Shown here piece after piece: positions 2,661 to 15,721 of a stretch of 32,000 bases of DNA (its first letter is position 1; each line of letters starts with the position of its first letter). The notes beneath the pieces are model-generated. The model was not told the DNA's origin. It ran no database searches and saw only the letters and a list, made by a program, of their open reading frames with translations. Both the position numbers and the translations under genes were made by a program. Source of the DNA: Candidatus Saccharimonadota bacterium (GTDB lineage: Bacteria; Bacillota_I; Bacilli_A; Mycoplasmatales; Hepatoplasmataceae); NCBI RefSeq assembly GCF_000582535.1, contig NZ_CP006932.1, forward strand, positions 1 through 32,000, in the 5' to 3' direction.

Positions 2661-3473
2661 TTATAATTGACTAATTTTTAAATCTCTAATTTTTGTTTTA
2701 AAATCCGAATTTAAATCTCCGCTTATTTCAATTATCATTTCTCTTTTGATTTGATTTAATCATTCTTCTACTTCTTGCTCAATTTTTTTTCTTAATTTAT
2801 TAATTTTTTGATCACAATCAGCAAGAATTAAATTATCATCATTAATTTTTAATTTTAATTTCTTTGCTTCTGTAGTTAAAAAATTAAAACGATTAATATA
2901 TTTTTCAAATCCATCAAAATCTACTTTTATTATAGGAAAGATTTTAATTCTTTGATGAAATTTTTCAAATTCATCAATAAATTGATTTTTATTTTCTCTA
3001 AATTCACTTGTAATTTCTTTTAAATCATTTTTATTTTCAGCAATTTTCTTTTCCTTTGTAATAAATCCAATTTTTTTTCTTTTATTAAAGATATCATTTA
3101 AATTTAATTTTCGAAGTTTATTTATTAAGCTATCAAAAGAAACATTAATTTCTTTTAATTTTTCTTGATAATTATATTTATTTTCAATTTCTTTTTTTAC
3201 TTTAAAAATATTTTCATTTATTACATTAACTTCTTCGTTGTATTTATTTAATAAATTATATTCTTGGATAATTTTATTATTTAAAAAATTTCGATCTTTT
3301 AATAATCTTTCATTTTCTTGTAAACTATTATTTAAAATTTTAAATAATAGTTTTAATTCCTTATTATTAGGAAATTGTAAATTACTTAAAATATTTTGAA
3401 CACTAGCAGTTGAAATTATTGTTTGTTTTTTATTCTTTACTGATGTTTTATTTTGTGTTAGTTCTTTTTTCAC
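2661..3473 (-). CDS. Hypothetical coiled-coil-rich protein (270 aa)
   Basis: Track ORF 2760..3473 ends at a TGA. Reading it as Trp extends the frame to TAA (plus-strand 'tta' at 2661-2663). The protein is Lys/Glu/Asn-rich with a heptad-like composition. I recognised no signal peptide or known motif. Confidence 0.6.
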
Positions 3474-3655: not shown

Positions 3656-5527
3656 ATGGAAGAAAAAAAGTTAGTTCAAAATAAATCTAACGAAAAAACT
3701 ATAATAAAAGAAAAAAAGCAAAAAGAAAAATTCTCTTTTCTTTCTTTTTTACAGAAAATAGGTAAATCATTAGTATATCCAATTGCTGTTCTTCCTGCTG
3801 CAGCATTAGCATTAAGAATAGGGGATGCTATTAGTGGAGCAGGAGATATGTATTCTGGAATTTGATGATTTGGATGAATTATTGAAACTCCGGGTGCTAT
3901 TATTTTTGACAATTTAGCAATGATTTTTGGAGTTGGTGTTGCTTTTGGATTAGCAAAAGATCATCGTGGAGAGGCTGCCTTAGTTGGCCTTATCGGATAT
4001 CTTGGACTTGTTGCTTTAGTTCAAAATGAACACTCTCTTACATCACTTATATATGATAATGTACTTACAAAAGATGGATATTCTCAACTTCTATATTATG
4101 TTACAGAAGTTACAAATCCAGATGGCACTACTACTATTTATGCGACTTGATTATTAAATCTTGGAGTTTTTGGGGGAATAGCAATGGGGATTCTTGCGGC
4201 TTGACTTTATAACAAATTTTCTGATATTCAATTACCAAAAGCTTTAGGATTTTTTAGTGGAAGAAGATTTGTACCAATGGTAATGCTTTTAGCTACTTTG
4301 CTATTTTCCTTTTTGATGGCTATTATTTGGCCTTGATTTCAATTAGCTCTAGTTGAATTAGCTTATGGATTATTATATATTCCCTGATTAGGAGGAGGAG
4401 TTTATATTGCTATTAATCGTTTATTAATACCAACAGGTTTACATCAAGTTTTAAATGTTTTCTTCTGATTTCAAATGCCTATTACTTGAGAAGGAAATCA
4501 AATTTTTATTCAAGATACAACAGGAACATTTGTTCCGATGTTTGGTGATATTAATGCCTTTTTAGAATCTGGATCTAATGTTGTAATTGCAATTCCAGAA
4601 ATTGGGGTAGTTGCAAATAGTGATATTGCTTATGATATTAATACTGGAACAGAAATACCTGATCGAACAGCCTTTACTTATTTACAAGAAGCAAATGTTG
4701 GAGCTTTTCAAGTTGGATTTTTTCCAATTATGATGTTTGGACTTCCTGCAGTTGGATTAGCAATTGCTAGTCAGGCAGATAAAGAGTATCGTAAAAGTGT
4801 TTATGCATTTATGATTACTGCTGCAGCAGTATCATTTTTAACAGGAATTACAGAGCCTCTTGAATTTTCATTTATGTTTGTATCTCCTTTGCTTTATCTT
4901 GCTTATGCCTTACTTTCGGGAGTTGTAGGAGCAATAACAATTGCAACAGGAGCTTCATTTGGATTTGGATTTTCAGCAGGAGCAATAGATTTTGGATTAT
5001 CTGTTCCTAATTCTCTTAATTTATCACATGGAATAAGTAGTTATGCAAATGGTTGAGGGGGATTTATTAATGTTCTTTTAATTGGAATTATTGTTTTTCC
5101 TATTTATTACCTGATGTCAATTCTTATTATTAAAAAATTTAATCTAGCAACACCAGGAAGAGGAGGAAACATTTCAGGAATAATTGAATTAGGAGAAGAT
5201 GAAAAAAATGGTATCAATTCAAAAGATGATAAATATTTCAAAATGACAATTGAAACAATTAAATTAGTAGGAAAAGATAATATCACAGATATTGATAATT
5301 GTATTACAAGATTAAGATTATCTGTAAAAGATAATTCTAATCTTAAAAAAGAAGATGCAATAAAAATTGGTTATACTGGACTTATTTCACCAGGGACAAA
5401 ATCTCTTCAATTTATTATAGGCCCAGAATCAGAAATAATTGCAAAAAATATGAAAGAAATATTTGATAATTGAGAAAATTATCAAGATTACTTTAAATAT
5501 TACGATGATAAAGTAAAAGAAAAATAA
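3656..5527 (+). CDS. nagE: PTS glucose/N-acetylglucosamine-family EIICB component (623 aa), with no EIIA domain
   Basis: Track ORFs 3656, 3920, 4538 and 5114 share frame 2 and are joined by TGA=Trp codons. EIIC motifs: 'FSGRRFVPM', 'NRLLIPTGLHQ', 'GITEPLEFSFMFVSPLLY'. EIIB phospho-cysteine motif: 'DNCITRLRL'. GlcNAc specificity is inferred only from the adjacent nagA and nagB. Confidence 0.8.
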
Positions 5528-5565
5528 ATTCAAGATGTTAAAAAAGTTTATGAAAGGGTTAAATA

Positions 5566-6681
5566 ATGATTAAAATAAGAGGCTATAATAAAGATTTAAA
5601 AAAAATTGAAATAATTTTAGAAGCAGGAAAAATTTTAAATGTTAAAGTTTTAGATCAGAAAGAAATTGTCGAAAAACAATATATAATTCCAGGTTTTATT
5701 GAAATACATTCACATGGGGGATATAATTTTGATTTTGTGTTAGCAGATCAAAAAAAATTATTATTTTTTTTAAATAAGATGGCTTTAAATGAAGGAGTAA
5801 CATCTATTTTAGGAACAACAATTACTACAGACTTACAGAAAACAAGGAAAACTTTTAAAAATCTTAGTCCTTTTATTAATAAAAAATTAAATGGAGCAAA
5901 TTTTATTGGTTGGCATATGGAAGGTCCTTTTATAAGTAAAATAAAAAAGGGAGCTCATCCAATTTCAGAAATTACCGAACCAATAATTAAAAATATAAAT
6001 AAATATATTGATGGTTATTTTAATAACATTAAATTAATTACTGTTGCTCCTGAAATTATTAATAAAGAATCATTAATTTATCTTAATAAAAAAAATATAA
6101 TTATTTCTGCTGGCCATATGAATGCAAATAAAAAGCAATTCATTGCAAAAGAAAAATATGGAATAAAATCAATTACTCATTTTAATAATGCAATGCAAAA
6201 AAATGATGATCTAAATGATAATAGTTTATCGGAATATATTATAAAAAATGATAATCTTTATATTGAATTTATAAATGATAGAATTCATAATTCAAAAGAA
6301 TTAGCAGATAAAATTTATAAAATTAAAGCAAAAGATAAAATTATGCTTGTTACTGACTCTTTACAAATAAAAGGATTAAAAGATGGAATTTACCCTGGTC
6401 CTAATGGGAATATTTATAAAAGAGATGGAGCGGCATGATTTGAAAACAAAATTTTAAATGGTTCTTGTTATACTATGTATCAAGGATTTAAAGATTGAAT
6501 TAAATATCAAAAAGCTTCTATTAGTGAAGCAGTGGCTGTAACTTCTACAAATCAAGCAAATCTTTTAAATTTAAAAAAAGGTAAAATCGAAAAAGATTAT
6601 GATGCTGATGTTTTAATTTTAGATTTTAATTTTAAAATTAAAGATGTATATGTAATGGGAAATAAAATATTGGAGAAATAA
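5566..6681 (+). CDS. nagA: N-acetylglucosamine-6-phosphate deacetylase (371 aa)
   Basis: Track ORF 5566..6438 was extended through two TGA codons (6436, 6496) to TAA 6679-6681, with every codon checked. It has the metal-binding 'GFIEIHSHGG', and its size and context fit NagA. Confidence 0.85.
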
Positions 6682-7361
6682 TGAAGATTATAAGTGGATC
6701 TAAAGAAAAATTAGAGCAATCAATTGCAGATAATATAAAAGATATTATCAATTATAAAAGTAATGCAAAACTTTTATTAGCAACAGGAAATTCACCAGTA
6801 GGGATTTATCAAAAATTAATTAATTTTTATCAAGAAAAAAAAATATCATTCAAAAATGTAATCACTTTTAATTTAGATGAATATTTAGAAAAAGATAAAT
6901 ATTTTGCTGATTCATTTCTTAATTTTATGAATCAAAAATTATTCAATGAAATTGATATAAATAAAGAAAATACATTTTTTCCAGAAAATCCTGATGAATA
7001 TAATAAAAAATTAGATAAAATTAATTTTTTTGATATTACTATTTTAGGAGTTGGAGAAAATGGACATATTGCTTTTAATGAACCAGGAAGTAAAATTACG
7101 GATCGTACAAAAATTATTGAATTAACTGATTCCACAATTAAAACAAATTTTAAAAATCGTACAAATTATCCAAAAAAAGCAATTACAATCGGAGTAAAAG
7201 ATATTCTTGAGAAATCTCAATTAATTTATATAATTGCTTGAGGAGAAAAAAAACGTAAAGCAATTGAAAAAATACTAGCAAAAAAAATTGATTCAAATTG
7301 ACCTGTTACTTATCTTTTAAATCATAAAAATGTAATTTTATTTACAGATCTTGATATTTAG
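6681..7361 (+). CDS. nagB: Glucosamine-6-phosphate deaminase (226 aa)
   Basis: The ATG overlaps the nagA stop (TAATG). It carries 'GVGENGHIAFNEPGS', the hallmark NagB motif. The frame extends through TGA 7239 and 7308 to TAG 7359-7361. Confidence 0.9.
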
Positions 7362-7458: not shown

Positions 7459-7482
7459 TATAATTTGTTTATGAAAAGGAGG
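7459..7482 (+). promoter_or_regulatory. Own -10 box and strong Shine-Dalgarno of the DUF262 gene
   Basis: TATAAT at 7459-7464 and AAGGAGG at 7476-7482, 8 nt before ATG 7491. Confidence 0.45.
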
Positions 7483-7490
7483 CGATAATT

Positions 7491-9992
7491 ATGTTTAAAA
7501 CCTCAAATTTTAATAAATTTGATGATTATTTAAATATAAATAATCCTAAATATAATATTGATAGTGGTGCGATTTATATTTTAAATGAAAGTATAAATAG
7601 AATCGAAGAATATGTATCACAAATTGAAGAAGAAATATTAAAAAATGAAGGAAATATTGCAAAATCACTAAGAGATTTTTTAGAAAATTTTTTAGAACAT
7701 TTTATTCCCGAAAAAATTAAAATAAATAATCTTTATAGAGATTTTGATTATCAAAAATATTTCAATTTTCAAAGCAGTTATGAAAAAATTACTGAATTAG
7801 ATGATTGAAATATAATTAATAAAGATATAAAAGATGCTTTGTATTTTATTAAAAATATATCAAACAATAGTTCTCATAGCAAAAATCAAAAAAATAATTT
7901 TGAAATCAATAAATCAAAAATTGTAATGTGTTTAGATTATATTTACAATATTTTATATTGATTTTATGATTTAAATTCAAGTCGTGATTTTAAATCAGAT
8001 CGATATTATAAACCAAATGAAAAAGAACCTAAAGCAGATATTAAAATAAAGCAAATTTTTTATCATGAACCTTATAAAACAATTGTAATAAATGATGATA
8101 AAATTTTAAATGTTTTATTTGATGAAGGCAAAAAGTTTTTTATTCCAATTTATCAAAGAAATTTCTCTTGAACAACAAGTGAAATCGATGAACTATTTCT
8201 TGATTTGGAAAAAAGAATAATAGATCAAAAAAATCATTTTTTTGGATTGGTTACTTTAAGTAATACTAATAATTTTCGTAAATCTGCTAACAAAAAAATT
8301 TATTTATTAAAAATTGTTGATGGTCAACAAAGATTTACAACAATTGCTTTATTTGTAAAAGCTTTGTATATTAATTATTTAAAAGAATTAAAACACGAAG
8401 ACAAAATTGATAATAAGTTAGCAAAATTTATTAACAATAAAAATTTACCAATTGACAGATTTGATGATAAAAAATCAATTGAAGCTTTTAGAATTATATG
8501 AGAAAAAGATAAAAAATTATTAAAATCAAATAAAAATTATCTTAAAGGAAACAATATTTATGAAATATATAAATATTTATTAAAAAAAATTTCTGATTTT
8601 AAAAAACCTAAAAATGAAGAAGAATCAATAATTGGAAATTTAGATAAACTATACCAAAGTTTAAAAAAATTAGTAATTGGAATAAATTGAACAAAAGATT
8701 ATGATGAATTTGAGCTTTTTGAATCAATAAATTCTAAAGGAGTTTTACTTACTAATTTTAATATTTTTAAAAACTATATAATATCTCTTGTTTCTAATCA
8801 AGAAGAAGATCAAATAGGAGAAATAGGTTTAATTTTTAATGATGATAAATCAAAGCAAATAACAACTTTATTTGATTATTATATTGTTGAAAAATTAAAT
8901 TTATGATTAGGAAATAATAAAGAAAAAGATTTTGAAAAAATAACAAATAATTTTTTCAATTCTTATATTAATTTTTATAGTAATAGTAAAACAAATGAAA
9001 AAAGATTATTTTCCCAATTTAAATCATTATTTTCCAATCAATTAAAACAAAAATATAATAAGATCGATAATTTTTCCTTACAAGAATTTGAAAATATTTT
9101 AAAGGATTTATCAGTATTTTTAAATACTTATTTATTTTTAAATATAGGAACATATCAAATTTGAAGTAAAAGTTCAATCTTATCTGATTATTATAAATAT
9201 TTTTATTCATTAGCAGGAACAAGTTTTGTAAATATTTTAATTCCTTATTTAATTAGTGAAGAAAATATTGTATTCTCAGATAAAGGAGCTATTATAAGAA
9301 TTAAAAATCCTTCAGAATTTATTGATATTCTTAAATTTATTCAAAATTGAAGAATAAGACTAGGAGCTGTAAATTCAAAAGAAAATTATGGAATTAAAAT
9401 TTTAAATTTTTCTAAAAAATTTAATCAAATCTTAGAAATTAATAAAAAAAATGGATTATTAATAGAACCTTTTTTAAATTTATTAAAAAAAGCTATTTCA
9501 AATGAAGATAATTTATTAAAATTTCCAGATGATCAAAAATTTTATAATGTTCTTGCAAATGAACCAATTTATAATGCTCAAATTTTAAAAGATATTATTT
9601 TTAAAATTGTACATCAAAATAATTATTCAATTGATGAACAAAAATTTAGTAAATATGATGTTTATCCTATTGTTGAAAAAGAAGCAAAAAAACGTAGCGA
9701 GGAATGAAATAGATTTTTACAAAAATTTAATAATATCACAGAGGAATCTTGTTTAAGATTAGGCAATTATTTTTTTCATAAAATAAATAAATTAATTAAA
9801 AAAAATGAAAAAGATAGTTTTGATTCTTTAATTAAAAATATAGAATATGATAATTTTACAATAAATAATAATAGTAATTTTGAGATTTTAGCATTAAAAG
9901 ATCTGAAAAATTATTATGGAAAAAACATAAACGATTATTTTATAGAGAGATCAAAATATTTTGCAATAAAAGCAAAAGAAATATTTAAATAA
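7491..9992 (+). CDS. DUF262 (GmrS/ParB-like NTPase) protein of the GmrSD type IV restriction family (833 aa), with an extra N-terminal domain and a divergent DUF1524-like C-terminus
   Basis: Frame 3 was checked codon by codon from 8460 to TAA 9990-9992. It contains only TGA interruptions and joins track ORFs 7491..7808 and 8205..8501. DUF262 motifs: 'FIPIYQRNFSW', 'IVDGQQRFTTIALF' (DGQQR at 8319-8333), 'FELFESINSKGVLLTNFNIFKNY'. C-terminal segments: 'DVYPIVEKE', 'LGNYFFHKINK', 'INDYFIERSKYFAIKAKEIF'. Confidence 0.75.
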
Positions 9993-9994
9993 AT

Positions 9995-10024
9995 AAAAAA
10001 ACATGTTTTAAAACATGTTTTTTT
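9995..10024. terminator. Bidirectional rho-independent terminator between convergent genes
   Basis: Perfect 11-bp stem aaaaaaacatg (9995-10005) / catgttttttt (10014-10024) around the loop ttttaaaa. The arms supply the A-run and T-run, so it reads as hairpin plus U-tract on both strands. It lies between stop 9992 (+) and stop 10047 (-). Confidence 0.7.
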
Positions 10025-10046
10025 ATTTTGTTTTTTATCTAAATTA

Positions 10047-12857
10047 TTAGATAGAATCAGTTCTTACTGTTGTAGGAGTAATAGATTGATAATAATCTTC
10101 ATAATTTATTGTACTTATTTCTATAAAGGTATATTCTGTATTAGGAATTAAATTATTTACTTTAAAAGTAAATTGATATTTTTCTGTTCCTTCGATACTT
10201 CCTTTTCCTATATATATTGCAGAATTTTCAATATAATCAGATTGATAATATTTATTTGAATCATCTTTTAAAAAAATTCCATTATAAGGATTGAAATTAT
10301 TAAAAGTAGGATTATTAATATTAGAATTATCTTTTAATTTTAAATTATCAATTTGAATTGAAAATTCAAAAGAATTTGAAGTAATTGAATTTTCAAATAT
10401 AACAAAAGAATCTGTAATTAATGAAATTTCACTATTTTCTGATGATTCAACTGTAATAGGTTCATCAAAATAAACTATTTCAGGGTTTTCTGTATAAAAT
10501 GGATTATCTAGAGATAAACCAGTAAAAATATATGTATTATTATTTTCTAAATTTAAACCATTTTGTTGGAAGATAAATTCATAATCATAATATCCAGCAA
10601 TACTACTATATCCAATTAAATTACTATCTAAATAAGTAGAATTGTAATAATTATTATTTTGATCAATTAATCAAATTCCATTATTTACATCATAATTTTC
10701 AAAACCTGTTTCATCAGCATTTGGTTTTAAATTATCAATTTCAACAGAATAATTAAAAGAATTATTTGTAATAGAATAATTAATTACACCAAATGAATTA
10801 GCAATTATTGAGGGATTTTGTGATTTTGTTATAAAAGTCATAGGATCTTGTTCTATTTTATATTTATAACTTCCATCTTCATAAAAATATTGAATTGAAG
10901 TAATTTGATAATTTGTATCTATACTTAAATTATTTAATTTGATTTTATAAGAATCATCTAAAGTTACTTTTTTATGATAAGTTGTATTTAAATCAAGATT
11001 TGTATAATTTATTTTTACTTGTCTTTGATCATTTGTATAATTATTAATATCAAAAGCTTCACCATTTTGTGTTAAATTTAAACTAATTGTTGCATCTGTA
11101 CTATTAATTATGCTTACTCAATAATCAGAAATTATGTAATCTGTTAAAATGGAATAATCTTCAATATTAATTTCATATCCATCAATAATTATTGAATCAA
11201 TTGTATATTCTTCTCCTCTTATAAAATCACCATCAATTCGATAATAATATGAATCTTCTTCAATATTTGATCTACCATCAATAAATGTAGTATTATAAAT
11301 TTTTCCATTATTATCTTTTATTTTAATTGACGGAATATCATTAATTACATTTAAAGCATCATTTAAATTTAATTGAACAAATAATTTATTATTTAAATAA
11401 TAAAATTGATAATTATTTAAAATATTAGGAATTGTAGAAAAAATTGCTTCAAATTCTAATAAATTATCATCGCTTGCATTTCCACCATTTCCTAATTGCC
11501 CATAAGCATCATTTCCTGCCATATACAATGTATCAGCAATACTGTCATTATTATAATCAATTAATATTCCTGAATGTCCATTTCCTAAACTGATATCAGT
11601 AATTTTTCCTTGTCATTGATCATTTTTAGGAGTTATCATAGTCGGGGTTAATAAATTTGTTATTGTTCCATTACCAAGTTGTCCATATTGATTATTTCCT
11701 CACATATAAAGTGTATCTGCATATTGTTCATTAATTTCTTCATTTGAATTTACAACAACTGATGAATAATTTCCACCTAATGATACATCATAAATGCTTC
11801 CTCCTCAATCATTATTTTCTGGTGTTATTATAGTTGGTGTAGAAACATCAATTTCTGTTCCATTTCCAATTTGTCCATATTGATTATTTCCTCACATATA
11901 AAGTGTATTATTTGTTCTAGCTGGATCTTCTAAATTTTCATTAATTAATAAACTAGAATCATCACCATTTAATTCAAAATCTATAAATGTTCCATTTCAA
12001 GTACCACTTTGTGGAACAACAATTATTGGAGTAGTAGAAAAACCACCTGTTGTTTCATTTCCGATTTGTCCATTACTGTTATTTCCTCACATATAAAGAA
12101 CATTACCATAACCATCATTTATAGAATCGGTGTCAATAGTAACTCCTGTATGATTGTATCCTAAATCAAGATCAACAATATTTCCACCTCAAGTACCACT
12201 TTCTGGATTTATAATTTGTGGACTTGGATAATAACCTGTTCCTGTTGTTCCGTTATTACCAATTTGACCATATTGGTTGCTTCCTCACATATAAAGTGTA
12301 TCTGCATATCCATCTAAATTTGTATCAATAGTAACTCCAGTATGATTATATCCCAAATCAAAATCAATAATATTTCCGCCTCAATTTGTTTGGTCTGTTG
12401 GAGTTATTATTTTTGGAGTAGTAGTATTTTTAATCGTTCCATCTCCAATTTCACCTTTAGAGTTATTTCCTCACATATATAGTGTATCTGCATATCCATC
12501 TAAATTAGTATCTACAGTTAAACCACTAGTGAGTCCATTTAATGAAAAATCAATAATATTTCCACCCCAATCATTTTGATTTTGTGGTAGTATTTTTATC
12601 GGATAAAATTGATTTATAGCTGTTGCATTTCCAATTTGTCCTTTATCATTTCTTCCTCACATATAAAGTGTATCTGCATATCCATTTTCATCTGTATCAA
12701 TTGTTATACCACTATGGAAATCTCCTGCTTCAAAATCTTTTAAAACAATTTTCTCTCCTAATTTTACATTTTCATTTAAATCTTTATAATTAGAACTATT
12801 ATATCCAAAAGCAATAACTATTGGAATAATAGTAATAGCACTAATAATTTTTTTCAT
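10047..12857 (-). CDS. Signal-anchored RCC1-like seven-bladed beta-propeller protein with C-terminal FN3-like beta-sandwich modules (936 aa), paralog A
   Basis: The minus frame was checked triplet by triplet. It has no TAA/TAG between ATG (12855-12857) and TAA (plus-strand tta 10047-10049), and many TGA=Trp codons. This joins track ORFs 12657..12857 and 11118..11528. N-terminus: 'MKKIISAITIIPIVIAFGYN'. Seven repeats carry 'YMWGxNxxGQ(I/L)GxG'. C-terminus: 'NSFEFSIQIDNLK...NNLIPNTEYTF'. Confidence 0.85.
11481..12752 (-). repeat. Seven in-frame tandem repeats of about 183-195 nt (RCC1-like blades) in paralog A
   Basis: The core 'cctcacatata[at]a[ag]tgtatctgcatatcc' (encoding GYADTLYMWG) recurs near 12654, 12470 and 12284. 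Degenerate copies lie near 12086, 11890, 11699 and 11520. Confidence 0.85.
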
Positions 12858-12937: not shown

Positions 12938-15721
12938 TTACATTAATGTTTTTACTATTACATCATCTATATTTGTATAGTTATTATTAGTAACTATTTT
13001 AGCTTCTGTAAATGTATAAGTTGTGTTTGAATTTAAGCCATTAATTTGAAAAGTAAATTGATATTTTGATGTTCCTGTTGTTGTTCCGTTTCCAAGATAA
13101 ATTTCACTTTCTAAAATATAATCTGATCTAAATATTTGCCCCAAATTATTTTTTAAATATAATCCATTTTTTGGATTAAAATTACTAAAAATTGGATCAT
13201 TTAAATTAGATCCATTTTCTAATTTCAAATTATCAATTTGGATTACATAATTAAATGAATTAGAAGTAATTGAATTCTCAATTACTGAAATAGAATTAGC
13301 AATAATTAATGGTTCTTGTTCTCCAACTCCTGTTGTTGTTACAGAAATTAAGGAATTAAAATTATAAATTGTTGGATTTAATGTTTGTTCTAAATTATCA
13401 AGTGTGATACCAGTAAATAAATATGTAGTATTTGAATTTAATCCACTTTGATTAAAGACAAATTGGTAATTATAATATCCTTGATATTCACTATATCCAA
13501 TTTGTTGATAATCTAAATAAGTAGAATTATAAATATTATCATCATTATCAATTAATCAAATTCCATTATTTACATCATAATTTTCAAAACCTGTTTTATC
13601 AGCATTTGGTTTTAAATTATCGATTTCAACAGTATAATTAAAAGAATTATCATTAATTGAATAATCAATTACAGTAAAAGAATTAGATATTATTTTAGGA
13701 ATTGCTTCATTTGTTTTAAAATTTAAAGAATCTTGTTCTACCTTATATTTATAACTTCCATTTTCATAAAAATATTGGATTGAAGTAATTTGATAATTTG
13801 TATCTATATTTAAATTATTTAATTTAATTTTATAAGAATCATCTAAAGTTACTTTTTTATGATAAGTTGTATTTAAATCAAGATTTGTATAATTTATTTT
13901 TATTTGTCTTTGATCTTCGGTATATTTATCAAGAGAAAAATTCTCTCCGTTATTATTTAAATTTAAGCTAACGGTAGCTTCTGAAGAATTTACATTTGTT
14001 ATTTTAAAATCTGAAATTAAGTAATCAGTAGTAAATTGATAATTATTTATATTAAATTGATTTCCATTAATTATTAATGTATCAAATATATAAGTTTGTC
14101 CACGATCAAAATCATAATCTATTCGATAATAATATGAATCTTCTTCAATATTTGATCTACCATCAATAAAAGTTGTATTATAAATATTTCCATCTGAATC
14201 TATGATTTTTACTTCTATTGTTTCATCAATTGTTTCTAATACATCATTAAATTTCAATTCAATAAATATTTTTCCATTAATAGAATAAAATTGAAATGTA
14301 TTTAGTAAATTAGGAATAGTAGAAGCTATTGGAATAAAATAGATTTTCTTTGAATCTTTTGAATTGCCCCCATTTCCTAATTGTCCATAATTATCACTTC
14401 CACACATATATAATGTATCTGCAAAATTATCTTTATTATTATCAATAAGAACTCCAGTAAAATTTTGACCTGAAGAGACATCAATTATATTTCCATTTCA
14501 ATCCGATTCATTTTCCGGTGTAATAATTTTTGGATTTAAAATATTATTTTGAGTTCCATCACCAAGCTGTCCGTTATTATTGCCTCCTCACATATACAAT
14601 GTATCTGCAAAATTATCCTTATTATTATCTATGATAACGCTGCTATTATAATGTCCTAATGATAAATCAACAATATTTCCATTTCAATTCTCTTGATTTT
14701 GTGGAGTAATTGTAGTTGGATATCAAACATTTGGTCCTATTGTTCCATTTCCAATTTGTCCATTACCATTTGCTCCTCACATATATAATGTATTATAATT
14801 TTCACCTGAATTATTATCCACTACGATTCCGGTATGATTTCTTCCTAATGATAAATCAATAATATTTCCATCTCAATCATCTTGATTTTGTTGTCTTATA
14901 ATTGTAGGATAATATTTATCATTACTTGTACCATCACCAAGTTGTCCATACTGATTATCTCCTCACATATATAATGTATCTGCATATCCATCATAATTAG
15001 AATCTATAGTTGCTCCACTATGATAGATTCCAAAAGAGATATCATAAATTGCTCCATTCCAATTACCATTTTCTGGGGTTATTATTGTTGGATTTAAAAT
15101 ATTAGATCCACTTGATCCATTTCCAATTTGTCCACTATTATTATATCCTCACATATATAATGTATCTGCATAACCGTCATAATTAGTATCAATACTAACT
15201 CCACTATAATTATTACCTGCATCTAAATCTATAATATTTCCATTTCAATTATTTTGATTATTGGGTGTAATTTTTTTTGGTATATATGTATCCTTTGTTG
15301 TTCCATCACCAATTTCTCCATTTGAATTTCTTCCTCACATATATAATGTATCTGCATAACCATCATAATTAGTATCAACAGTAATTCCACTATGATCTCC
15401 ATTTAAAGAAATATCAATAATATTTCCATTTCAATTATCTTGTCCTTTTGGTGTAATTTTTATTGGATAATATTTGTTTATTGTTGTTCCATCACCTATC
15501 TGACCTTGATTATTATATCCTCACATATATAATGTATCTGCATAACCATCAAAATTTGTATCAATAGTTATACCACTATGATAATCTCCTACTTCAAAAT
15601 CCTTTAGAACAATTTTTTCTTCTATTTCTTTATTTTTATTTAATTTTTTATAATTTGAATTATTATATCCAAAAGCAAAAACTATTGGAATAATCGCAAT
15701 AGCGCTAATAATTTTTTTCAT
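12938..15721 (-). CDS. Signal-anchored RCC1-like seven-bladed beta-propeller protein with C-terminal FN3-like modules (927 aa), paralog B
   Basis: The minus frame was checked triplet by triplet from ATG (15719-15721) to TAA (plus-strand tta 12938-12940). This joins track ORFs 15521..15721, 13556..14407 and 12938..13228 through TGA=Trp. N-terminus: 'MKKIISAIAIIPIVFAFGYN'. It has seven 'YMWGxNxxGQ(I/L)GxG' blades, the last reading 'YMCGSDNYGQLGNGG'. Confidence 0.85.
14362..15616 (-). repeat. Seven in-frame tandem repeats (RCC1-like blades) in paralog B
   Basis: The core 'cctcacatatataatgtatctgcata' starts at 15518, 15333, 15147 and 14961, with variants at 14775, 14586 and 14402. The first four copies are nearly identical over about 46 nt. 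Confidence 0.85.

Follow-up and report, generated by a model that had tools for sequence, protein, structure and literature searches.

The gene X271_00007 of Candidatus Hepatoplasma crinochetorum Av (AHK22130.1, WP_025208427.1), an isopod-gut symbiont with a 657 kb genome, carries the existing annotation of merely "DUF262 domain-containing". GmrSD, BrxU and SspE, to which it bears a likeness, are understood as single chains that combine an NTPase sensor with a His-Me nuclease. The question raised by this locus is whether its product is a DNA-cutting enzyme of the same kind and, if not, what its output might be. A sequence-only reading of the window (the whole stretch of DNA analysed, 32,000 nucleotides, to which all coordinates refer) had proposed a variant type IV restriction or BrxU-like module. 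The Av genome is 94% coding, with 4 pseudogenes and without mobile elements (PMC3942034), and the defence genes previously listed for the symbiont comprise CRISPR-Cas9 and R-M only (PMC10928387).

Gene and domain architecture

Under genetic code 4 (table 4), X271_00007 is one unbroken open reading frame of 833 amino acids at 7491..9992 on the forward strand, as originally proposed, with 9 in-frame TGA (UGA-Trp) codons that break it into fragments under table 11. It lies 7.5 kb from the dnaA start in the company of dnaA, dnaN, PTS, nagA, nagB, RCC1-repeat proteins, ksgA and prs, its immediate neighbours being housekeeping genes with no defence island. The 129 nt gap that separates it from nagB holds an AAGGAGG ribosome-binding site (7476..7482, forward strand), 8 nt before the ATG, and a -10-like hexamer, TATAAT (7459..7464, forward strand). 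Both signals ascribed to the gene are thus in place, but the hexamer is statistically indistinct in AT-rich DNA of ~18% GC, where a sigma-70 promoter scan was uninformative (36 sites vs 31.8 expected). The gene does have its own terminator, a 17-bp perfect hairpin with a U-tract between convergent genes (9991..10028; dG -14.8 kcal/mol, z = -5.5; 0/200 shuffles equally stable), which is likely a bidirectional intrinsic terminator; a scan for GC-rich terminators gave no match, although this AT-rich hairpin is clearly there. The NCBIfam scan of the protein likewise gave no match.

The DUF262 / GmrSD_N ParB-like NTPase domain, described beforehand as "unmistakable", proved to be so, with residues 207-430 (8109..8780, forward strand) matching Pfam PF03235 at E 1.3e-27. 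On the same strand, the domain contains the YQR motif at 8151-8159, the DGQQR motif at 8319-8333 (residues 277-281) and the EFELFESINSKG motif at 8706-8741, and the longer forms IPIYQRNFSW, DGQQRFTT and FELFESINSKGVLL are all found in the protein. YQR, DGQQR and EFELFES-N-KG are intact here and invariant in 16/16 long forms. The domain is followed by a helical middle domain (residues 441-700; 8811..9590, forward strand) that hhalign and PADLOC comparisons relate to the middle region of GmrSD and SspE, for which a DNA-binding role is described (PMC12065111). The best PADLOC matches, the Orf5 and HEC-06 profiles, align from residue ~205 to ~775-780, and SspE matches are confined to the DUF262 region. 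Constraint on X271_00007 is strongest in these two intact parts, the DUF262 NTPase and the DNA-binding helical middle.

For the C-terminal domain (residues 701-833; 9591..9989, forward strand) a DUF1524-type layout had been suggested. Pfam PF07510 (DUF1524) matched 0/12 family members, even at E <= 10. Profile-profile alignment by hhalign of these 12 members against 36 canonical DUF262+DUF1524 proteins, on the other hand, gave a probability of 100% (E 4e-47) over residues 199-813, and the AF2 model places strands at 722-726 and 760-764 and a helix at 767-772, which together form a beta-beta-alpha core. By profile and model, the C-terminus is genuinely homologous to DUF1524, with the scaffold and the structural Asn kept and the general-base His lost. 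The structural "GN" of the His-Me finger is represented by G758-N759 (9762..9767, forward strand), N759 being invariant in 48/48 aligned sequences.

The segments "DVYP" and "LGNYFFHKINK", from which an altered nuclease had been suspected, are both present in this domain. The suspicion was justified as regards the missing His, but its register was off by three. The lost His corresponds to Pro726 and not to Asp723, because hhalign and MAFFT independently place the canonical E-H-I-x-P on Y725-P726-I727-V728-E729 (9663..9677, forward strand). The catalytic His is present in 36/36 canonical proteins vs 0/12 family members, and in 0/15 of the extended family (members reaching the C-terminal region); a correct alignment with the His conserved, which had been named beforehand as grounds for giving up the proposal, is thus not seen. 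The distal Asn is present in 36/36 canonical proteins vs 5/12 family members. From these alignments the DNA-cutting site is judged dead since the origin of the subfamily. Mutation of the His abolishes defence in BrxU and in HEC-06 (H472A), where DGQQR is also essential (Q79A, R80A) (10.1101/2024.01.29.577857); in DndI, the same consequences follow from R87A and N541A. Since the His missing here is essential in BrxU and HEC-06, the proposed label, a type IV restriction variant or BrxU-like module, breaks down on a defining feature.

The N-terminal region (residues 1-175; 7491..8015, forward strand) had been compared with DUF4145-type modules on account of the segment IKDALYFIKNISNNSSHS, which is present, and the resemblance is real. 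The domain is all-helical and is assigned to a divergent DUF4145 / HEPN-superfamily type by AF2, Foldseek, profile searches and hhalign. The Pfam DUF4145 model (PF13643) scores X271_00007 at 17.3 bits, under the 23.1 cutoff, and gives sub-threshold matches in 7/12 family members (best E 3.4e-4). In a reciprocal search of 1.84 billion sequences, the N-domain profile picks up three proteins scoring above the DUF4145 cutoff, and hhalign of the N-domain against these bona fide DUF4145 proteins gives 98.3% (E 1.7e-14). According to these comparisons the N-terminus is a divergent DUF4145 homologue, short of curated-threshold membership. With plain Pfam failing or sub-threshold, the DUF1524 and DUF4145 homologies are carried solely by profile-profile and reciprocal searches; all three parts of the architecture, HEPN/DUF4145, DUF262 and DUF1524, are supported.

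DUF4145 is a HEPN-superfamily (RNase-type) domain (PMC3710099), and its presence alters the likely output of X271_00007. The AF2 model of the N-domain (pLDDT 87, pTM 0.86), built from a substring of protein P0001 that is 99.6% identical to X271_00007, has a four-helix HEPN fold (helices 25-42, 53-78, 111-124 and 141-158) with an insert, 87-105, between helices 2 and 3. The top 14 Foldseek matches in the PDB are all HEPN toxins, each of them weak (E 0.12-0.6, TM 0.4-0.55), and a PDB sequence-profile search with the N-domain returned nothing meaningful, with a GCN4 coiled coil at E 4.8. The segment K121-N125-H129 (7851..7877, forward strand) is in register with the DUF4145 motif R-x3-N-x3-H and agrees in position with the HEPN Arg...His motif at the end of helix 3 (PMC3710099). 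N125 and H129 are thus present, and Lys121 occupies the Arg position, where 6 of the 16 long forms have R, 7 have K and 3 have lost the residue, leaving an R/K-N-H motif in 13/16. RNase activity of X271_00007 is uncertain, because PrrC and the KEN domain depend on the conserved Arg that Lys replaces here (PMC3710099).

Family, selection and partner gene

The family is rare, with 16 matches among 1.84 billion proteins, all of them long forms from Hepatoplasmataceae-like Mollicutes. Its members extend down to ~29% identity and include separate paralogues, the loss of the His being common to all. X271_00007 is kept under purifying selection. Comparison with the H. scabrum orthologue gives an overall dN/dS of 0.28 (neighbours 0.115-0.30), with 0.17 in DUF262, the lowest of the protein, and 0.43 in the C-domain. 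This copy (A) is intact in at least 5 genomes, having diverged to 69-71% identity. Paralogue B, located between a PTS gene and secA and adjoined by truncated stand-alone N-domain genes, has a dN/dS of 0.63, rising to ~0.85 in the terminal domains, and its HEPN motif is decayed; under such relaxed selection, loss of function may be under way in one copy or more. Copy number varies across the family, with paralogues and fragments. When phages and plasmids were searched for the long form, the DUF262 core alone gave matches.

The gene slot is identical in Av, HCTKY, Ps and H. scabrum. Synteny is limited to the crinochetorum/scabrum lineage and is absent in H. vulgare, where the gene lies between recU and recA, or beyond; a shared housekeeping position in all related Mollicutes, which had been raised as a counter-indication, is thus not seen. 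The gene is near the origin, as the sequence-only reading stressed, but this proximity is incidental, the H. vulgare copy lying elsewhere. Both a tie to the replication origin and a part in ParB-like partitioning were rejected, the near-dnaA position being confined to the crinochetorum/scabrum lineage. A contig search with the family patterns DGQQR[FL]TTI and [DN]EFELFES found canonical GmrSD loci, with no Hepatoplasma among the matches listed; swamped by such loci, it is uninformative for synteny.

Every distant family member adjoins a short gene of a GmrSD subfamily (loci L005, L086, L088 and L089), a pairing that lies beyond the reach of a reading confined to the window. The short partner, of 605-652 aa, carries DGLQR and DH[ILV]xP, its nuclease motif being intact; one such protein (P0061) matches PD-T4-2_A weakly (1.4e-10, ~75 residues). 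In Tyloplasma a stand-alone N-domain adjoins a short GmrSD, and the loci of relatives are sometimes found in defence islands. The short partner is absent from Hepatoplasma, with no remnants near the Hepatoplasma genes, and X271_00007 is stand-alone in the Av genome, as had been stated.

Function and competing explanations

In line with the sequence-only proposal, X271_00007 might even now cut DNA as a type IV restriction enzyme, with either a re-wired C-domain site (E729, R735, K770, N788, N792) or a ParB/Srx-fold DUF262 domain that itself cleaves. Such an enzyme would suit the retention of the beta-beta-alpha scaffold, GN, W739 and R820, the several C-domain residues invariant across the family and the C-domain dN/dS of 0.43, and the GmrS/ParB-fold domain may itself be a nuclease, like Osa (Machnicka et al., 2015, PMC4619093). 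It is nonetheless quite unlikely, given that the general-base His is found in no member, the distal Asn is not conserved, no Pfam DUF1524 signal is left, and HNH mutation in BrxU, HEC-06 and DndI kills nuclease and/or defence despite an intact DUF262. The intactness of copy A in so many genomes, its constraint overall and in DUF262, its own strong ribosome-binding site and terminator, and a host genome with so few pseudogenes make it highly improbable that the gene is a functionless relic, that is, an orphaned regulatory subunit decaying after loss of the short partner, even though the partner is missing from Hepatoplasma without remnants and paralogue B has relaxed selection, a decayed HEPN motif and truncated N-domain genes beside it.

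Domestication as a non-defence DNA-binding NTPase, either a DndB-like regulator or a ParB-like chromosome/nucleoid factor, with both HEPN and His-Me sites inactive and serving for binding or scaffolding only, draws on a wider set of observations. The slot is fixed among housekeeping genes in four genomes, dN/dS is close to that of these neighbours, there are no mobile elements in the genome to defend against, and neither the catalytic His nor the HEPN Arg is kept, the latter having become Lys. DUF262 systems often turn dead enzyme domains into binding modules (PMC12065111), and the DUF262 proteins include DndB, whose role is regulatory. This explanation is considered unlikely, since the family is limited to one small Mollicute clade, other Mollicutes being without it, its position is not kept in H. 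vulgare, and relatives occur in defence islands, paired with a nuclease. In addition, a dead HEPN would not be expected to conserve K/R-N-H in most long forms, PADLOC yields no DndB match, and variable copy number with paralogues and fragments is typical of defence genes.

As the best explanation, X271_00007 is reasonably likely to be a diverged, defence-derived member of the GmrSD/BrxU/SspE lineage, and it is very probably a sensor NTPase with its own nuclease dead. Its output is probably not DNA cleavage, because the NTP-driven sensor has been kept, the cutting His lost and a HEPN domain added. That the specific output is a HEPN RNase is a tentative proposal. A current defence role in Av is unproven, since neither phages nor mobile elements are detectable in its genome.

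Mechanistically, a defence-derived sensor of this type would dimerise on the GmrSD scaffold, like BrxU, SspE and DndI, and its NTP binding and hydrolysis would serve DNA sensing, perhaps of modified or foreign DNA. The signal would then pass to another output, bypassing the protein's own His-Me finger. For the ancestral long form this output may have been the partner nuclease; for the orphaned Hepatoplasma copy, paired HEPN domains acting as an RNase, leading to abortive infection or growth arrest, would be the most plausible. Taken as a whole, an "effector swap" within the GmrSD family is possible but rather doubtful: a HEPN RNase would have been gained and the protein's own His-Me DNase lost, originally in a heteromer with the short nuclease-active paralogue, the Hepatoplasma orphan being a single-protein, NTP-gated HEPN RNase defence or abortive-infection module. 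If this were true, the ancestor would have been a two-subunit, dual DNA/RNA-targeting type IV-like system.

The family shows that the scaffold can persist over long evolutionary time with its nuclease site destroyed, and this persistence is tied to two conditions, a fused HEPN and, in relatives, an adjoining nuclease-intact paralogue. These conditions suggest that GmrSD-type systems may act as active/inactive heteromers and that the DUF262 sensor may, as in PD-T4-2, have acquired an RNase as its output. X271_00007 thus represents a retained defence-related candidate in a streamlined gut symbiont free of mobile elements. The practical value is modest, refining the annotation from "DUF262 protein" to "HEPN-DUF262-inactive DUF1524", with the caution that domain content alone is insufficient to name such proteins type IV restriction enzymes.

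Comparison with known systems

With GmrSD, BrxU and HEC-06 the protein has end-to-end homology over residues ~199-813, the same order of DUF262, helical middle and DUF1524 scaffold, and the intact NTPase motifs YQR, DGQQR and FES-N-G. It differs from them in having Pro726 at the His of (D/E)HIxP and in a distal Asn that is not conserved within its family, and from GmrSD in the additional ~175-aa N-terminal HEPN/DUF4145 domain; the catalogued accessory domains of GmrSD are DUF4268, DUF4357 and DNA_binding_1, HEPN/DUF4145 not being among them (PMC4619093).

The best structural matches are SspE and DndI, with a TM of ~0.43 normalised to the target (Foldseek: SspE, 7drs, 1.9e-9; DndI, 9jfl, 5e-8; BrxU, 2.6e-3). 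Both are phosphorothioate-sensing DUF262-DUF1524 NTPase/nickases and form dimers, and the common logic is that of a conformational switch, driven by the NTPase, that acts on an effector domain. DndI N541A and the SspE nuclease mutants lose function, whereas the HNH of X271_00007 is itself dead by alignment, and neither SspE nor DndI is reported with a HEPN domain. No sspABCD or dndBCDE modification genes adjoin X271_00007.

PD-T4-2, Menshen and Dazbog, which have DUF262 without DUF1524 and of which PD-T4-2 joins DUF262 with HEPN (PMC10952713), follow the same proposed principle of a DUF262 sensor NTPase with an effector other than His-Me. In contrast to PD-T4-2, the HEPN of X271_00007 is an N-terminal fusion of the DUF4145 family and the degenerate DUF1524 is still there. 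The PADLOC PD-T4-2_A/B profiles gave no match for X271_00007, its N-domain or protein P0055 (E <= 1-10). Membership of PD-T4-2, DndB or genuine SspE was rejected, there being no PADLOC or gene-context support.

DUF4145 at the N-termini of restriction and defence NTPases is recurrent, occurring in HsdR and DndF as in X271_00007; protein P0060 is a DndF with an N-terminal DUF4145 that also matches a type I REase profile. Fusion of HEPN to "ParB (DUF262) with HNH" is itself already recorded, e.g., in VNG7073 (Anantharaman et al., 2013, PMC3710099). By its description, VNG7073 stands apart, its HEPN being assigned elsewhere among the HEPN families, with a motif given as "active", and its HNH not being described as inactive, whereas in the Hepatoplasma family many members replace the Arg by Lys and the HNH, by alignment, is uniformly dead.

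Domain architecture of X271_00007

The gene at 7491-9992(+) encodes a protein of the GmrSD lineage whose NTPase sensor core is intact, and its architecture is HEPN(DUF4145)-DUF262-inactive DUF1524. An exact-sequence look-up matched it to AHK22130.1 / WP_025208427.1, X271_00007 of Candidatus Hepatoplasma crinochetorum Av (genome size 657,101 bp), so far annotated as 'hypothetical' or 'DUF262 domain-containing'. The window has a GC content of ~18-22%, with in-frame TGA codons within its long genes; table 4 yields one 833-aa ORF containing 9 UGA-Trp codons, and under table 11 the same region falls into fragments. Public gene calls in the standard bacterial code stop such a gene at its first UGA (7491-7808 in the window), P0051 (105 aa) and P0087 (98 aa, JGI) being fragments of this kind, so code-11 pipelines under-report the family sharing this three-part architecture, here termed the long form. 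The expression signals claimed in the sequence-only reading were all located, namely AAGGAGG at 7476-7482 (8 nt 5' of the ATG), a TATAAT hexamer at 7459-7464, consensus promoter scans being without discriminating power in DNA this AT-rich, and a 17-bp perfect hairpin with a U-tract at 9991-10028 (dG -14.8 kcal/mol, z = -5.5).

The central domain is matched by Pfam GmrSD_N (PF03235) at residues 207-430 (E 1.3e-27), and none of the 16 full-length family members collected departs from its motifs YQR, DGQQR and EFELFES-N-KG. PADLOC profiles for Orf5 and HEC-06 (GmrSD-like) align from about residue 205 to about 775, with SspE profiles weaker. A PDB profile search recovered the DUF262 part only, in SspE, DndI, BrxU and newer DUF262 entries, and in sequenced phages and plasmids relatives were found by the DUF262 core only.

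Pfam PF07510 finds nothing in any of 12 long-form members, even at E <= 10. Comparison of the 12-member family profile with 36 canonical DUF262+DUF1524 proteins nevertheless aligns residues 199-813 end to end (hhalign probability 100%, E 4e-47), and the AlphaFold2 model (pLDDT 84.4) contains the expected beta-beta-alpha unit (strands 722-726 and 760-764, helix 767-772), with Foldseek matches to SspE (1.9e-9), DndI (5e-8) and BrxU (2.6e-3). On these alignments the C-domain (residues 701-833) is a DUF1524 homologue, a His-Me finger lacking its catalytic His across the whole subfamily. The canonical E-H-I-x-P aligns with Y725-P726-I727-V728-E729 in hhalign and, independently, in MAFFT, three residues from the DVYP proposed earlier as the HxxP equivalent; that register was mistaken, while the absence of the His was correctly seen. 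The His is present in 36/36 canonical proteins and 0/12 family members (P, S, Q or E instead), or 0/15 once more distant members are included. The distal Asn falls from 36/36 to 5/12 (N766 in X271_00007), whereas the structural GN (N759; canonical 36/36) is kept in 12/12, the usual Trp (W739) in 10/12 and the nearly invariant Arg (R820) in 12/12.

For the N-terminus, Pfam alone is sub-threshold (DUF4145, 17.3 bits vs a cutoff of 23.1), the same hit recurring in 7 of 12 family members (best E 3.4e-4). Modelled alone, residues 1-180 fold with confidence (pLDDT 87, pTM 0.86) into a helical bundle whose second and third core helices are separated by an insert. Its 14 best Foldseek PDB matches are all HEPN toxins (HepT, SO_3166), followed by the HEPN entries 1wol, 1o3u, 2q00, 8xeh and MtlR, each match being individually weak (E 0.12-0.6, TM 0.4-0.55). 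When 1.84 billion representative proteins were searched exhaustively by HMM, the N-domain profile returned only 16 proteins. Pfam classes the weakest three (P0058-P0060; library-wide E 1e-4 to 9e-4) as genuine DUF4145 proteins (47.8, 37.9 and 41.5 bits), and their DUF4145 domains align with the N-domain at 98.3% probability (hhalign, E 1.7e-14). DUF4145 belongs to the HEPN families (PMC3710099), and the N-terminus of X271_00007 is a divergent domain of this type; the sequence-only reading had noted its resemblance to DUF4145. In the alignment K121, N125 and H129 correspond to Arg, Asn and His of DUF4145, and in the model K121...H129 occupy the HEPN motif position described in PMC3710099, according to which PrrC and the KEN domain both need the Arg. 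Of 16 long forms, six have Arg at the basic position, seven have Lys (X271_00007 included) and three have lost it, these being P0008 and paralogue B, the diverged second Hepatoplasma copy; Asn and His show the same pattern. One of the proteins found, P0060 (758 aa), is a DndF (PADLOC E 4e-183) and represents another case of a DUF4145/HEPN module ahead of a defence NTPase.

Genomic settings and the short partner gene

Long forms are rare, making up about 10 clusters at 50% identity, and every one comes from a low-GC, code-4 contig of a Hepatoplasmataceae-like Mollicute. X271_00007, or copy A, occupies a nagB, gene, ksgA, prs slot in strain Av, strain Ps (L092) and H. scabrum (L001), and the locus tag HCTKY_0070 points to this slot in strain HCTKY. 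The single copy of H. vulgare (44% identity) is placed between recU and recA. Two H. crinochetorum genomes carry paralogue B (~40% identity), flanked by a PTS EIIABC gene and secA; proximity to the origin is therefore incidental. Directly 3' of paralogue B is a stand-alone N-domain of 171 aa (P0057; L003 10542-11057, L004 10540-11055) with a decayed HEPN catalytic motif, which could be left over from a tandem duplicate or constitute a small subunit of its own.

Upstream of copy A in the window are dnaA (1-1368), dnaN, a PTS EIICB gene, nagA and nagB; between dnaN and the PTS gene, a 270-aa Lys/Asn/Glu-rich ORF (2661-3473(-)) without a Pfam match keeps its position in H. scabrum and strain Ps. 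At three independent long-form loci, genes for PTS sugar uptake or amino-sugar catabolism stand directly ahead of the long form (PTS-nagA-nagB at 3656-7361 of the window; manA and PTS EIIABC at about 4189-7898 of L003 and L004; two PTS EIICB genes at 1-4053 of L005), which may be a coincidence of PTS-rich reduced genomes. Downstream, before ksgA/rsmA and prs, are two convergent, paralogous RCC1-repeat proteins of ~930 aa (10047-12857(-) and 12938-15721(-); Pfam RCC1 E 7.7e-48), each with an N-terminal hydrophobic leader. They are absent from the equivalent slot of H. scabrum and strain Ps, so these putative surface proteins mark an insertion or expansion specific to the lineage.

Each distant long form, at four loci, adjoins a short GmrSD-subfamily gene of 605-652 aa, all four with DGLQR and an intact DH[ILV]xP...N motif; DH[ILV]xP is kept in 10 of 11 sequences of the short-gene family. 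The short gene is upstream of P0011 with a 1-nt gap (619 aa, L005), upstream of and overlapping P0053 (633 aa, L089), downstream of P0054 (605 aa, L088) and convergent with P0055 (652 aa, L086). This last pair (L086 9421-16406, Mollicute contig) lies beside Fic, UvrD-type helicase and AAA_15/OLD-TOPRIM ATPase genes, the latter two forming a Gabija-like pair. Ca. Tyloplasma litorale has a free-standing N-domain of 174 aa (K-N-H intact) directly 5' of the short partner TYPL_1900, within a defence island (L090, AP027078, 1-8890) that also includes a KAP NTPase, two C5 methyltransferases and two further genes with both GmrSD_N and GmrSD_C (720 and 819 aa); PMC10928387 does not list these GmrSD genes among its tabulated defence genes. 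In Hepatoplasma, neither a protein of the short-partner family nor, near the long forms, any remnant of one was found.

Selection and functional reading

The loss of the HNH site weighs heavily, as mutants of the equivalent motif in HEC-06 (E471A and H472A in EHICP) and BrxU (DHIYP) lose phage resistance, as do DGQQR mutants (10.1101/2024.01.29.577857); in DndI, N541A abolishes nicking and defence, and R87A abolishes ATPase activity and defence (PMC11662687). X271_00007 alone therefore probably cannot work as a GmrSD/BrxU-type DNA endonuclease, and a re-wired DNase is disfavoured by the requirement for the HNH motif in characterised homologues. The earlier proposal of a type IV restriction enzyme falls with the catalytic His, a defining feature of that class; its observations stood and its interpretation survives in part.

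A decaying relic is contradicted for copy A by its intactness and by selection. Against the H. scabrum orthologue (Nei-Gojobori, code 4; dS around 0.7, the method being approximate in genomes of such biased composition), dN/dS is 0.28 for the whole gene, 0.34 for the N-domain, 0.33 for the middle region, 0.43 for the C-domain and lowest, 0.17, for DUF262. Eight flanking housekeeping genes give 0.115 to 0.30, so copy A is a constrained gene, in a genome that is 94% coding, with four pseudogenes and no mobile elements detected (PMC3942034). Decay is plausible for paralogue B, which is relaxed (0.63 overall, about 0.85 in both terminal domains). Domestication as a DNA-binding NTPase outside defence, a less likely reading, would suit the housekeeping neighbourhood and the lack of mobile elements.

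We favour a reading in which the ancestral long form would have cooperated with the adjacent short GmrSD, where the nuclease site is intact; such a heteromer is plausible because BrxU, SspE and DndI are dimers. With the partner gone in Hepatoplasma, the conserved K/R-N-H HEPN site would be the only candidate left for a catalytic output. Two motifs must be brought side by side in HEPN RNases, and NTP-controlled dimerisation of the GmrSD scaffold could be a natural switch. HEPN fusions to 'ParB (DUF262) with HNH' have been on record since 2013 (PMC3710099), and PD-T4-2 couples a DUF262 sensor to a non-DUF1524 effector, a HEPN domain, with Menshen and Dazbog being further DUF262 sensors coupled to non-DUF1524 effectors (PMC10952713).
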